Origin: a phage
DNA: 64,000 bases
Reading direction: 5' to 3' (one strand)
Sequence record: PZ445437.1
Shown here: piece by piece, positions 24,285 to 27,692 of the stretch
How the letters are laid out: each line of letters opens with the position of its first letter
Position numbering within the stretch: the stretch's first letter is position 1
Translations under genes and position numbers: made by a program
The notes under the pieces: generated by a model
Told to the model about the DNA's origin: nothing
The model's database searches: none
Seen by the model: the letters and a program-made list of their open reading frames with translations, nothing else

Positions 24285-24866
24285 CTAACCGAGCTTTTTA
24301 GTTAATTCATTCCAATGTTTTCTGCACAAAGAAACATAAATTTCATCACCAATACAGATTTGATTACCTTCTTTAACTGGTGTTCCATCTTCCATTAATC
24401 GAGCTGTCATAATCGCTTTTTTGCCGCAATGACAAACTGCCTTTAGTTCAATAAGTTTATCTGCAATCGCTAAAAGTTCTTTAGAACCTTCAAACAATTT
24501 TCCAGCGAAATCAGTCCTTAATCCATAAGCCATAACAGGAACATTATATGTATCAACAATTCGACTTAATTGATGCACCTGTTCAGTTTTTAAAAACTGA
24601 GCTTCATCTACAAATACGCAATGAATATCTTTTTGTGCTTCAGCCCATTTATAGAACTCGAAAATATCCATATCATCTGTAATAATATTCGCTTCCTGTT
24701 TAATTCCAATGCGAGAAACAACTTCACAGACAGAATCGCGAGTATCAATAGCAGGCTTAAGAACTAATACACTCATTCCACGTTCTTTATAATTATGTGC
24801 AGCAGTCAAAAGAGAAGCAGATTTTCCAGCATTCATTGCTGCATAAGTAAAAATTAAACTCGCCAT
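24285..24866 (-). CDS. tk: thymidine kinase
   Basis: 193 aa; P-loop YAAMNAGKS and C-terminal zinc-binding cysteines (CHCG...C..C). Confidence 0.9.
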   Translation of the reverse strand: MASLIFTYAAMNAGKSASLLTAAHNYKERGMSVLVLKPAIDTRDSVCEVVSRIGIKQEANIITDDMDIFEFYKWAEAQKDIHCVFVDEAQFLKTEQVHQLSRIVDTYNVPVMAYGLRTDFAGKLFEGSKELLAIADKLIELKAVCHCGKKAIMTARLMEDGTPVKEGNQICIGDEIYVSLCRKHWNELTKKLG

Positions 24867-24867
24867 C

Positions 24868-25056
24868 TTAGTCCTTAGTTAAATTTTCTAAATATGTTTC
24901 TAAATCATTTTCAGCTTTATCGATAGATTTTACTAATTCGTAATATGTTTCGGCATCTCCATATTCAGAAGATATTTCAAAAGACAAATCCTTTTCTAAA
25001 CTAATAATTTCACCAACTAAAAATAATATTTCGTTCTTTTGTTCGCGAGTAATCAT
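24868..25056 (-). CDS. hypothetical small acidic protein (paralogue of the next ORF)
   Basis: 62 aa; REQKNEILFLVGEI pattern. Confidence 0.4.
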   Translation of the reverse strand: MITREQKNEILFLVGEIISLEKDLSFEISSEYGDAETYYELVKSIDKAENDLETYLENLTKD

Positions 25057-25238
25057 AAGGAATTTATATAATTAATAAGTTCTTGTTCTTTATTATCGAA
25101 TTCTTTAGAAAGTTCTTCGTACTCGTTTGCACTAAAAGGACCGCATTCATTACAAACTTTTTCCAATTCGCTATTTTTATCCATAACTTCGTGGATAAGA
25201 GAAAAGAGTTTGTCTTTTTGTTCTTTGCTTAGGCTCAT
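25053..25238 (-). CDS. hypothetical small acidic protein (paralogue of the previous ORF)
   Basis: 61 aa; KEQKDKLFSLIHEV pattern. Confidence 0.4.
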   Translation of the reverse strand: MSLSKEQKDKLFSLIHEVMDKNSELEKVCNECGPFSANEYEELSKEFDNKEQELINYINSL

Positions 25239-25404
25239 ATATTAATTTCCAGAAGTTTTAAAATAATTCGCTTTTGCTTAAATATTTCCATAGTTAAATG
25301 ATCAGTATCTTTTTGACCAATTCCAATGGCAAAACCTTTATTAGCAGCGAGTTCAATTAAATTATCAAGTTCACGTAACACTTCGTACTGTAACTCAGAA
25401 CTAT

Positions 25405-25617
25405 TCATTTCGGTTTACCTTCTTTAACGAAATCTGGATAAGGATAAAATCCCGAATAAAATCCTTCACCTTTATGATTGACGCATCCTTTATTAGAACA
25501 ATAGCACCAATAATCGAAATCACAAGCCATTTCATCGTTGCATAAAGCAAAAACAACCGGCCACTTACACTTTTCACAATGGGCATTTTTAAGAATACTA
25601 GTTTGGCTCATAACCAT
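25405..25617 (-). CDS. cysteine-rich small protein (putative zinc binding)
   Basis: 70 aa with 9 Cys, including CEKCKW and CYCSNKGC. Confidence 0.4.
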   Translation of the reverse strand: MVMSQTSILKNAHCEKCKWPVVFALCNDEMACDFDYWCYCSNKGCVNHKGEGFYSGFYPYPDFVKEGKPK

Positions 25618-25835
25618 GTCACCTTTAAGCAGTATTCTTCTACATGCTGTTTACGACCTTTCTTATCAATAAAGGTATATTCAACGAATGTTCCAATGTA
25701 GTCTTTATCTACATCATGTGGACTATTAATTGGACATTTAGTACGGCAAATGCGTTCCCATTGACGAATAATTACTGCCTTATTCTTTGGGTCATACGGA
25801 TGTGGATAATGTATATTCATAATAACGGTTCCCAA
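25608..25835 (-). CDS. hypothetical protein
   Basis: 75 aa ORF. Confidence 0.4.
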   Translation of the reverse strand: MGTVIMNIHYPHPYDPKNKAVIIRQWERICRTKCPINSPHDVDKDYIGTFVEYTFIDKKGRKQHVEEYCLKVTWL

Positions 25836-26284
25836 TCAACAATCACAATTTCTAATTTAGAGGAATATGTATCTAAAATCCCCTCAATAATATCCCAGTT
25901 CCCTTTACCTATGCCTGCACCAATCCTAGGCATATAGATTGTAGGTTTAATCAGTTTATTTTCACCAAACTCATTTAATTCTAACATACAATTCATTAAA
26001 GCGGAATACTCAAAATTTGGCCCCGGTTGAAATTGAGTATAAAGATTGAAGCAGTAAGCTTTATGAGTCCTAAAGTATTTTTCATAGACTGAGTAAGAAC
26101 CGAGTTTAGTTACATCGCCCCATTCTGTCTGTAATTTATCAGCTTCCAAAATTTTAGGGAAAGCTTTGGTTAATTGACCCGCTACGCCTGAACCCATAGT
26201 ATGAAAACAATTGCATCCATGCGCAATATTTTTACCTTCAGCGAAAAGGGCGACAATATCGCCCTTGATATATTTTACAATCAT
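25817..26284 (-). CDS. macro domain protein (putative ADP-ribose binding/hydrolase)
   Basis: 155 aa; GDIVALFAEG..IAHGCNCFHTMGSGVAG and later IGAGIGKG, resembling macrodomain nucleotide-binding loops. Confidence 0.55.
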   Translation of the reverse strand: MIVKYIKGDIVALFAEGKNIAHGCNCFHTMGSGVAGQLTKAFPKILEADKLQTEWGDVTKLGSYSVYEKYFRTHKAYCFNLYTQFQPGPNFEYSALMNCMLELNEFGENKLIKPTIYMPRIGAGIGKGNWDIIEGILDTYSSKLEIVIVDWEPLL

Positions 26285-26628
26285 CTAGTACTCAATCCTC
26301 GATTATAAGAATCTACCAAACAGTCAACCATTGAATGACAAGCGGCTTTATCTTTCTCCTCCGCAACTGAGCATTCTAAGGTATTCCACTTTTTAGCATA
26401 TCGTTTTAATAATGTATCGTTTTTGTATCTGCTTGATTTATCTCTTTCTCCGTCTTTATATGCATATATTAATTTCTGTGCAAATTCAACTTGGCATGCT
26501 TTATTTTTCCCACAATAATCTGCCGCAGTGCGGTTTACATATTCTCTAATTTCAGTATATGATGTATCTGCTGATGCAGAAGCAGAAAATGAAATTAATC
26601 CTATACATAAAACCAAAATTTTAGTCAT
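26281..26628 (-). CDS. secreted cysteine-containing protein
   Basis: 115 aa; N-terminal signal-peptide-like MTKILVLCIGLISFSASASA; 6 Cys. Confidence 0.45.
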   Translation of the reverse strand: MTKILVLCIGLISFSASASADTSYTEIREYVNRTAADYCGKNKACQVEFAQKLIYAYKDGERDKSSRYKNDTLLKRYAKKWNTLECSVAEEKDKAACHSMVDCLVDSYNRGLSTR

Positions 26629-27166
26629 TTACTATTTCCAAAAGTTTATTATTTTTAAGGTAATTAGCCTTTTCTAGGACTTCAGAAGCATATTTAGAAC
26701 CTGCTTTAACATTCCATCCCGAATTATAAGAGGATATTGCTTTTCTTATATCGCCCTTATGTATATTTAACCAATAAGAAAGTTCAATGTACGCCCAGGA
26801 AGCTGAATTGGATCGTTTATTCAACATTCTTTTTATTTCAGCATCAGTCATATTATAACCAAGTTCCTTAACTCTCGCTCGCATAGTAGGCAAATAATTT
26901 TGGAACATTCCATAAGCGTGATGCTTTGGTTTAGATTTTAAATTAACTCCGCCAGAGCTTTCTTGCCATAAAATGGCTGCCATTATATGACCTAATCCGC
27001 TCTTGTGGATATTTTTATGTGTTTTATATTTTCCATCCTTAGAAAATTGTTCCCCGAATTGATACGCGTAACGCATGTTATCGAGTTGGACATTACTGAA
27101 AGTATGCTCGGAGCTATGTGCCATCATTGAAATGGCCAATAGACCAGCGAGTAGTGCTTTTCTCAT
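26621..27166 (-). CDS. secreted lytic-transglycosylase-like protein
   Basis: 181 aa; signal-peptide-like N-terminus; LWQESSGG and YGMFQ resemble lytic transglycosylase catalytic motifs. Confidence 0.5.
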   Translation of the reverse strand: MRKALLAGLLAISMMAHSSEHTFSNVQLDNMRYAYQFGEQFSKDGKYKTHKNIHKSGLGHIMAAILWQESSGGVNLKSKPKHHAYGMFQNYLPTMRARVKELGYNMTDAEIKRMLNKRSNSASWAYIELSYWLNIHKGDIRKAISSYNSGWNVKAGSKYASEVLEKANYLKNNKLLEIVND

Positions 27167-27173
27167 GCTTACC

Positions 27174-27635
27174 TCATTGAGTTTTAATTACTGCTTTAGA
27201 AGCCTTTCCTGGTAAACGACGACTGTTAATAATTGCCATCCTACATTGAAGTGACGGGTCTTTGAACTTCTCGTTAGGTTTACAAACTGTAAATCCAAGC
27301 CAAAGATTTCCATCTGTGATTTCTAAACGTCCAGGACGATATTCAACCCCATCAATAAAATCCTCGTCAATGTCAGGACGCGGAGGCATACTCAGGAATT
27401 CATTAACTTCTAAAACATGGTCTTTTATTTTATGGAATAATTCAAAAACATATGTCTCATCAATCTCCCGCTGAATTGCGCGATCAAGAAGATGCTGAGA
27501 ATATTTTAGATGAAACGATGAGACCCCTGCTGCTTTTGATGCCTCACGAATCTCATTGTTAATTTGACGAAACTCCGACTCAAAGTGACGACGAAGCTTA
27601 TTTCGACGAATAAAAACTTCTGTATTGATAGTCAT
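27174..27635 (-). CDS. regB: endoribonuclease RegB
   Basis: 153 aa; sequence and position consistent with T4 RegB; RBS AAGAGGAGAA and early promoter upstream. Confidence 0.75.
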   Translation of the reverse strand: MTINTEVFIRRNKLRRHFESEFRQINNEIREASKAAGVSSFHLKYSQHLLDRAIQREIDETYVFELFHKIKDHVLEVNEFLSMPPRPDIDEDFIDGVEYRPGRLEITDGNLWLGFTVCKPNEKFKDPSLQCRMAIINSRRLPGKASKAVIKTQ

Positions 27636-27662: not shown

Positions 27663-27692
27663 ATTATACCACAGTCAAGAGGAAAAGTAAAC
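27663..27692 (-). promoter_or_regulatory. T4-type early promoter upstream of regB (-35 GTTTAC, extended -10 TGGTATAAT)
   Basis: Minus-strand GTTTAC at 27687-27692 and TGGTATAAT at 27663-27671. Confidence 0.6.

Follow-up and report, generated by a model that had tools for sequence, protein, structure and literature searches.

The minus-strand reading frame analysed here is gene tk.4 (adfM) of a T4-like Tequatrovirus, and its product is an ALC1-like macrodomain with no further domains, which very probably serves the phage as an 'orphan antitoxin' by erasing thymine-linked ADP-ribose (T-ADPr). Both its annotation as a macrodomain and its standing as the anti-DarTG2 factor AdfM are already known for this gene; the published HIDEN-SEQ results (below) concern an identical protein. 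What we add is incremental: a comparison of sequences suggesting that Tk.4 differs in mechanism from DarG and from the AdfM protein of phage PhiKZ.

The DNA studied is a 64,000-nucleotide stretch of a phage genome record (PZ445437.1; hereafter the window). Its list of open reading frames contains a 155-aa ATG-to-TGA frame at 25817..26284; a preliminary description of the region had reported this frame without its strand, which is minus. All 155 of 155 residues of the encoded protein are identical to those of T4 Tk.4 (NP_049723.1; the T4 counterpart is also ORF 60.5 of X04567), and the six differences between the window and T4 in the 468 nt of tk.4 are all synonymous (0 non-synonymous). The frame is not a chance one, given this identity with synonymous changes only and tblastn matches in 2750 of 50,697 phage records, the match spanning 80% or more of the protein in 2417 of them. 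It is phage T4 gene tk.4, orthologous by sequence and by its conserved position between vs and tk.3.

The surrounding 3.5 kb is 98–99% identical to many Tequatrovirus (T4-like) genomes. The host phage is one other than T4 itself: the flanks of tk.4 are 98.2–98.6% identical to T4, and the window has approximately 367 bp between tk.2 and tk.3 (25240..25606) that are extra relative to NC_000866. The tk–regB location given in the preliminary description is correct, and this interval is made up of small minus-strand genes arranged head-to-tail (Table 1). In NC_000866, T4 tk.4 carries the long-standing annotation 'phosphatase; contains A1pp phosphatase motif', whereas elsewhere in the databases it is entered as a macro domain protein.

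Table 1. Genes, predicted functional sites and signals in and around tk.4. Coordinates are positions in the window; residue numbers are those of Tk.4. The start of the tk.3-type gene is the one annotated in phage 303Ecol101PP (98.9% identical).
Feature	Position	Strand	Basis or remark
tk (thymidine kinase)	24285..24866	-	
tk.3-type gene (DUF7202)	25608..25820		downstream of tk.4; PF23832, 131 bits
ATGA overlap, tk.4 stop / tk.3-type gene start	25817..25820	-	read from sequence
tk.4 / adfM CDS	25817..26284	-	155-aa stand-alone macrodomain; ORF, NP_049723.1 identity, Pfam, AF2, Foldseek
Loop 2, P119-W130 PRIGAGIGKGNW (RIGAGIGKGN = 120-129)	25895..25930	-	predicted diphosphate-binding loop
Gln84 codon CAA	26033..26035	-	at the catalytic Lys position of TARG1 (K84) and DarG (K80); HMM and MAFFT
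Asp49 codon GAT	26138..26140	-	family-specific invariant residue
Loop 1, H22-GCNCFHTMGSGVAG-Q37 (HGCNCFHTMGSGVAGQ, residues 22-37)	26174..26221	-	predicted ADP-ribose-binding/catalytic loop, contains Asn25
Asn25 codon	26210..26212	-	within loop 1
ATGA overlap, vs stop (TGA) / tk.4 start (ATG)	26281..26284	-	read from sequence and ORF ends
vs	26281..26628		adjoins tk.4 on its upstream side
regB	27174..27635	-	PF10715, 231 bits
Promoter-like site TTTACT-17-TATAAT, TG before second hexamer	27663..27691	-	upstream of regB; best-scoring site of the region

The promoter-like site upstream of regB and the ATGA overlaps suggest that tk.4 may be co-transcribed and translationally coupled with regB, vs.1 and vs. 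The site is a candidate start of a regB-vs.1-vs-tk.4 transcript and is suggestive only: the region as a whole held 19 promoter-like sites against 18.0 expected from shuffled sequence, which is no excess, and its count of terminator-like elements was not above that of shuffles. Both the AUG and the Shine-Dalgarno sequence of tk.4 are paired in the predicted RNA fold, which also has a GC-rich hairpin in codons 7–13. A regulatory RNA structure at this start was rejected (z = -1.78; an energy as good was reached by 9 of 200 shuffles).

We confirmed the predicted macrodomain fold of Tk.4 by sequence matches in Pfam and the PDB and by an AF2 model with its Foldseek matches. The Pfam Macro family (PF01661), whose gathering cutoff is 22 bits, scored 27.7, with Tk.4 residues 22–132 aligned to profile positions 2–113 of 118, and PHROG 335, which is labelled 'phosphatase', matched at 1e-65. 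The AF2 model, made from the alignment behind a 57-homologue profile, had a mean pLDDT of 95.7 and a pTM of 0.91, with six strands and five helices. Foldseek returned 116 PDB matches at E<=0.001, and the best 50 of these 116 were macrodomains or designed hydrolases on macrodomain scaffolds, each at probability 1.00. The leading matches were TARG1 (8.5e-10), BT1257 (2.8e-9), Poa1p (2.9e-9) and DarG (1.4e-7), with TM-scores of 0.68–0.81. The preliminary description had proposed a macrodomain and had named the absence of this fold from a profile search or structure prediction as the result that would speak against it; both analyses were run, and a macrodomain was seen in each.

By sequence and predicted structure, Tk.4 belongs to the ALC1-like (TARG1/DarG/SCO6735/Poa1p) class, to which it is closer than to MacroD-, PARG- or viral Mac1-type domains. 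When the single sequence was searched against the PDB, the best match was BT1257 (1.3e-9), followed by yeast Poa1p, SCO6735, DarG and human TARG1. The 57-homologue profile gave BT1257 at 8e-18, TARG1 at 7e-15, SCO6735 at 6.5e-14, M. tuberculosis DarG at 1.8e-13 and Poa1p at 2.8e-13, with coronavirus Mac1 at only 1.6e-3. All of the top 15 PDB sequence matches of the family profile were ALC1-like (E 8e-18 to 2e-7), and the Foldseek order agreed.

Both glycine-rich stretches that had been pointed out earlier are present in the translation (H22–Q37 and R120–N129), and they align with the loops of TARG1, DarG and SCO6735 (N25 and G33; G122 and G124). Across the 57 homologues, G23, N25, G33 and A35 of loop 1 and P119, I121, G122 and G124 of loop 2 were unchanged. 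Residues were also counted over 259 Tk.4-family sequences, including representatives of 50%-identity clusters; N25 was kept in 258 of the 259, and Gln84 and Asp49 in every one (259/259 each). When Tk.4 was aligned by MAFFT with references drawn from the results of the PDB searches and from the PhiKZ paper, N25 fell on SCO6735 Asn27 and PhiKZ AdfM Asn23, mutation of either of which lowers activity (PMC9411070; PMC13309987).

Three positions place Tk.4 among its relatives. At the catalytic Lys position, Tk.4 has Gln84, as SCO6735 has Gln85 and BT1257 a Gln; TARG1 has Lys84 there, DarG Lys80 and PhiKZ gp104 a Lys. Loop 2 aligns by HMM with TARG1 'PRIGCGLDRLQW', which puts Gly126 of Tk.4 at the position of the catalytic Asp125 of TARG1, where DarG and PhiKZ gp104 also have Gly and SCO6735 has Ala. 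The loop-1 Asn is shared by Tk.4 (Asn25), DarG, PhiKZ gp104 (Asn23) and SCO6735 (Asn27), and is Ser26 in TARG1. From the alignment of Q84 and N25 with SCO6735 Gln85 and Asn27, and from their consistent retention, we infer that Tk.4 belongs with the Gln-type thymine-ADP-ribose glycohydrolases. SCO6735 itself loses all activity through Q85A or Q85E and nearly all through N27S (PMC9411070).

Two further features separate Tk.4 from SCO6735 and BT1257. The mobile loop of Tk.4 is short, with 8 residues between Q84 and Y93 (the same in 152 of 259 relatives), and Asp49 stands where BT1257, SCO6735, both DarG proteins and PhiKZ gp104 have Tyr (MAFFT). It is conceivable, if rather doubtful, that thymine-ADP-ribose glycohydrolases include a third mechanistic type, which the Tk.4 family would represent and which Gln84/Asn25, the short loop and Asp49 together would define. 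Such a type would stand apart both from DarG, TARG1 and PhiKZ AdfM (Lys-type) and from SCO6735 and Bt_1257 (long-loop Gln-type), and in it Asp49 might serve as the missing general base or as a nucleic acid contact. If this were true, the family might act on further substrates, such as uracil-linked ADP-ribosylation of RNA, and have an anti-defence spectrum beyond DarTG2.

The biological role of tk.4 is described in the HIDEN-SEQ preprint, posted on bioRxiv in November 2025 (10.1101/2025.11.20.689424). In it, tk.4 was the sole significant hit from a T4 transposon library on DarTG2-expressing E. coli, and T4 with a clean tk.4 knockout was sensitised to DarTG2; the DarTG2 experiments used M9 glucose medium at 30 C. 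The authors name the gene adfM, for anti-DarT factor Macrodomain, liken Tk.4 to the M. tuberculosis DarG macrodomain, and say of enzymatic ADP-ribose removal from DNA that it 'seems likely', going no further. The preliminary description had raised DarTG as a possible target and had proposed infecting DarTG-carrying hosts; this is already published for the identical T4 protein, with the single library hit and the sensitised knockout as the outcome.

In the explanation that we favour, host DarT2 would ADP-ribosylate thymidines in single-stranded phage DNA and so block replication. Tk.4 would bind the ADP-ribose through its two glycine-rich loops and hydrolyse the thymine-ribose N-glycosidic bond, restoring normal DNA. 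Its chemistry is probably Gln-type and water-mediated, as proposed for SCO6735, with Gln84 positioned by Asn25, and not Lys-dependent. Since Tk.4 has no DarT-binding domain, it would act on the modification and not on the toxin. Analogy with characterised relatives points to enzymatic protection, to T-ADPr DNA as the substrate and to catalytic roles for Q84 and N25. SCO6735 rescues DarT toxicity and outpaces both DarG and TARG1 in cleaving DarT-made thymidine-ADP-ribose DNA; the mechanism put forward for it is water-mediated and uses a backbone carbonyl (PMC9411070). An independent phage precedent is the in vitro removal of DarT2-made ADP-ribose from DNA by PhiKZ gp104 (PMC13309987). Counting against this explanation, Tk.4 has neither the DarG catalytic Lys nor the extended mobile loop of the SCO6735 type, its invariant Asp49 is unaccounted for, and the genetic evidence comes from a preprint.

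Relatives of tk.4 are widespread. The phages matched by tblastn infect mostly Escherichia, Klebsiella, Salmonella, Pseudomonas, Vibrio and Acinetobacter, and in an exhaustive profile search 18,112 cluster representatives passed E<=1e-3, of which 8868 also passed E<=1e-10 and 1161 passed E<=1e-30. Most of the top 150 profile matches are stand-alone proteins of 145–190 aa (longest, 302 aa); judged by length, none of these 150 is a DarG-sized protein, as a fusion to a toxin-binding domain would be. Two distant homologues are labelled by NCBI as proteins of bacterial metagenome-assembled genomes (P0072 and P0118). Both contigs are T4-like phage DNA, carrying Rnl1, a Dda-like helicase, PNKP, dCMP deaminase and SLT, and the two homologues are therefore uninformative on a bacterial origin; acquisition from a bacterial toxin-antitoxin locus gains no support from them. 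Among their neighbours there was no Pfam match to the ART family, and several neighbours had no Pfam match of any kind.

We weighed this DNA-repairing role against functions in which DarT2 adducts are not the target. Tk.4 could be a metabolite enzyme, either an ADP-ribose-1''-phosphate phosphatase like Poa1p or an O-acetyl-ADP-ribose deacetylase, that clears by-products of NAD-dependent reactions. Database names point this way ('phosphatase' in NC_000866 and PHROG 335; O-acetyl-ADP-ribose deacetylase for homologues at JGI), as do the match of Poa1p in sequence (phmmer, 2.8e-6, with the main match spanning only residues 3–98) and in fold (2.9e-9, TMq 0.81), and the conservation as H22 of the His altered in the Poa1p H23A structure ('IHSCNC' in Poa1p, 'AHGCNC' in Tk.4). 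The residues mutated in Poa1p structures are H23, S30 and F152; the S30 position is Thr29 in Tk.4 by alignment reading. The names, however, derive from motifs, and we know of no Appr1p-generating pathway (a Tpt1/KptA-type 2'-phosphotransferase) in T4. A metabolite role would also leave unexplained the DarTG2-specific phenotype, the sole one on record, and the closest characterised Gln-type relative, SCO6735, acts on DNA (PMC9411070). We regard such a role as improbable; phosphatase or deacetylase action is possible as a side activity. Reversal or tuning of the protein ADP-ribosylation or RNAylation that the phage's own Alt, ModA and ModB write, which the preliminary description had raised first, is plausible insofar as T4 encodes these three ADP-ribosyltransferases and could pair a writer with an eraser (PMC8120803). 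The modified residues named in that source are arginines, though (RNA polymerase alpha Arg265 for ModA; MazF Arg84), and characterised ALC1-like macrodomains act on Glu/Asp esters, T-ADPr DNA and U-ADPr RNA (PMC9411070, PMC13036486), with arginine-linked ADP-ribose not among the ALC1-like substrates reported in the literature surveyed. In the plaque assay, the empty-vector control host supported growth of the tk.4 knockout, which was sensitised only with DarTG2 (10.1101/2025.11.20.689424). The idea thus found no support, and we hold it to be extremely unlikely.

Other alternatives accept the DarTG2 phenotype and differ on how it arises. Protection could be non-catalytic, with Tk.4 binding DarT2, NAD+ or ADP-ribosylated DNA and so blocking the toxin or shielding the lesion; the other anti-DarT factors AdfA and AdfB are direct DarT inhibitors (PMC13309987), and Tk.4 is missing the canonical catalytic Lys. 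Yet the DarT-binding C-terminal region of DarG is absent from Tk.4, the conservation of the Gln-type residues Q84 and N25 (259/259 and 258/259) fits selection for an enzyme, and SCO6735, a relative of the Gln-type, hydrolyses its substrate fast (PMC9411070), all of which make a purely protective binder very improbable. It is also unlikely, but less remote, that the key target is broader or different, namely uracil-linked ADP-ribosylated RNA or another ADP-ribosylating defence, with DarTG2 as one of several. TARG1, DarG and SCO6735 each cleave uracil-linked ADP-ribose on single-stranded RNA (PMC13036486), and the wide spread of the family in phages (2750 records; 8868 cluster representatives at E<=1e-10) would suit such a range. 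On the other side, no bacterial uracil-ADP-ribosylating defence was found in the literature surveyed, and the available HIDEN-SEQ text includes only one other ADP-ribosylating defence, DarTG1 (10.1101/2025.11.20.689424).

If the erasure of T-ADPr is correct, Tk.4 would be a phage orphan antitoxin in the sense that it removes a host toxin's DNA modification instead of inhibiting the toxin, a view drawn by analogy. The family is large, numbering 8868 or more cluster representatives at E<=1e-10, and an understanding of its chemistry and of the substrates it accepts would make it easier to foresee which phages can evade defences of the DarTG2 type.

Among known systems, DarG shares with Tk.4 a homologous N-terminal macrodomain (PADLOC 1.3e-9; Foldseek 1.4e-7, TMq 0.77; DarG reference structures PDB 5M31, 5M3E and 5M3I) and the biological outcome, neutralisation of DarT2. 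We nevertheless rejected membership of Tk.4 in the DarG family. The NCBIfam equivalog antitoxin_DarG (NF048014) scored 30.3 bits against a cutoff of 250 (2.5e-7; model positions 2–146 of 338), and the PADLOC DarG model matched at positions 2–145 of 329, in its macro part only. With 155 aa, Tk.4 is without the C-terminal DarT-binding domain; the catalytic Lys80 of the T. aquaticus and M. tuberculosis proteins is Gln84; and there is no darT gene beside tk.4, whose neighbours are vs and the DUF7202 (tk.3-type) gene.

The closest solved sequences are the Gln-type ALC1-like proteins BT1257 of Bacteroides thetaiotaomicron (Bt_1257, PDB 2FG1; profile E 8e-18) and SCO6735 of Streptomyces coelicolor (PDB 5E3B; 6.5e-14), which are 54%-identical homologues of one another (PMC9411070). 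Like Tk.4, they have Gln at the catalytic-Lys position with a positioning Asn and no equivalent of TARG1 D125. However, BT1257 is only approximately 24–25% identical to Tk.4 (Foldseek), and it is on this level of identity that the transfer of the SCO6735 mechanism to Tk.4 rests. The mobile loop of SCO6735 and Bt_1257 is approximately 5 residues longer than that of DarG and TARG1, and the authors tie it to high DNA activity (PMC9411070); Tk.4 is without this extension (a 5–6-residue gap in MAFFT). Tk.4 differs, too, in being phage-borne with a demonstrated anti-defence role, as the preprint describes. Human TARG1/OARD1 (PDB 4J5R), the top Foldseek match and of the same ALC1-like class, also takes T-ADPr off DNA (PMC8501950), but uses a Lys84/Asp125 dyad where Tk.4 has Gln84 and Gly126.

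PhiKZ gp104 was also named AdfM, independently (Cell Rep 2026, PMC13309987), and is likewise a stand-alone phage macrodomain directed against DarTG2, with N23 aligning with Tk.4 N25. It strips DarT2-made ADP-ribose from an oligonucleotide in vitro and is impaired by N23A (PMC13309987), whereas for Tk.4 no such assay was found in the literature surveyed. Unlike Tk.4, gp104 is imported into the phage nucleus (PMC13309987), has Lys at the catalytic position ('FPTKDNW') and finds its match in M. tuberculosis DarG at 9e-25; the BLASTP alignment between the two phage proteins covers just 23 residues (E 0.005). These differences assign the two AdfM proteins to different lineages, so that two unrelated macrodomain lineages share one name. 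AdfN of T4 (gene 30.3; PMC11825919) comes from the same phage and is also an orphan antitoxin-like hydrolase that erases DarT-made ADP-ribosylation of DNA, but it has an unrelated NADAR fold, and its substrate is the guanine-linked ADP-ribose that DarT1 makes and not the thymine-linked form that DarT2 makes. Thus, T4 would appear to carry one such enzyme per DarT type, AdfN for guanine adducts and, if our reading of its substrate holds, Tk.4/AdfM for thymine adducts.

Two distant homologues of Tk.4, the macrodomain protein encoded by tk.4, lie on contigs L003 and L004; both homologues carry database labels of bacterial metagenome-assembled genomes (MAGs). The gene content around these homologues comprises Rnl1, a Dda-like helicase, PNKP, dCMP deaminase, a T4 spanin and SLT, and the contigs look like T4-like phage DNA. 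On L004 the order of macrodomain gene, small ORF and SLT gene resembles that of tk.4, vs and vs.1 in the window.

In the window, the SLT domain of vs.1 scored 25 bits against a cutoff of 21.3, and a Pfam search with vs returned no match. According to the HIDEN-SEQ preprint, a T4 transposon screen (bioRxiv 10.1101/2025.11.20.689424), growth in minimal medium depleted vs more strongly than any other T4 gene. Both tk.1 and tk.2 matched PF24219 (DUF7438), at 56 and 69 bits. Between tk.2 and tk.3, approximately 367 bp (25240..25606) are missing from T4 (NC_000866) and are common to the closest database phages, such as 303Ecol101PP.

Features in the window and on the two contigs
Feature	Position	Strand	Remarks
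Tk.4 homologue, L003	1927..2397		Distant; this protein and that on L004 bear the MAG labels 'Bacilli' and 'Culicoidibacterales'
Tk.4 homologue, L004	6001..6480		Distant
tk.1, tk.2	24868..25056 and 25053..25238	both -	Tandem paralogues
57-aa ORF	25235..25408	-	Extra segment; no Pfam match
70-aa Cys-rich ORF	25405..25617	-	101-bit match to PF23895 ('Phage zinc binding domain')
Asp49 codon of tk.4	26138..26140
GC-rich hairpin, 9 bp	26246..26266		tk.4 codons 7-13; predicted RNA fold
vs (valyl-tRNA synthetase modifier)	26281..26628	-	Hydrophobic signal-peptide-like N-terminus MTKILVLCIGLISFSASASA
vs.1	26621..27166	-	Signal-like segment at start; SLT transglycosylase domain

In the predicted RNA fold of 26243..26321 (minus strand), the GAGGA Shine-Dalgarno and the tk.4 AUG were paired with upstream vs coding sequence. 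Comparison with shuffled sequences gave this fold weak support (z = -1.78; 9/200 shuffles equally good); it could be compatible with translational coupling of tk.4 to vs.

Asp49 was kept in all 259 proteins of the Tk.4 family (259/259), whereas a Tyr aligned at this position in BT1257 and SCO6735 (Gln-type, ALC1-like macrodomains), in both structures of the DarTG2 antitoxin DarG, and in PhiKZ gp104. The name AdfM was coined independently by two groups, for T4 Tk.4 (bioRxiv 10.1101/2025.11.20.689424) and for PhiKZ gp104 (Cell Reports; PMC13309987). According to the Cell Reports paper, there had been no earlier report of a macrodomain Adf. The two proteins called AdfM are non-orthologous: T4 Tk.4 is a Gln-type macrodomain, whereas PhiKZ gp104 is Lys-type and DarG-like.
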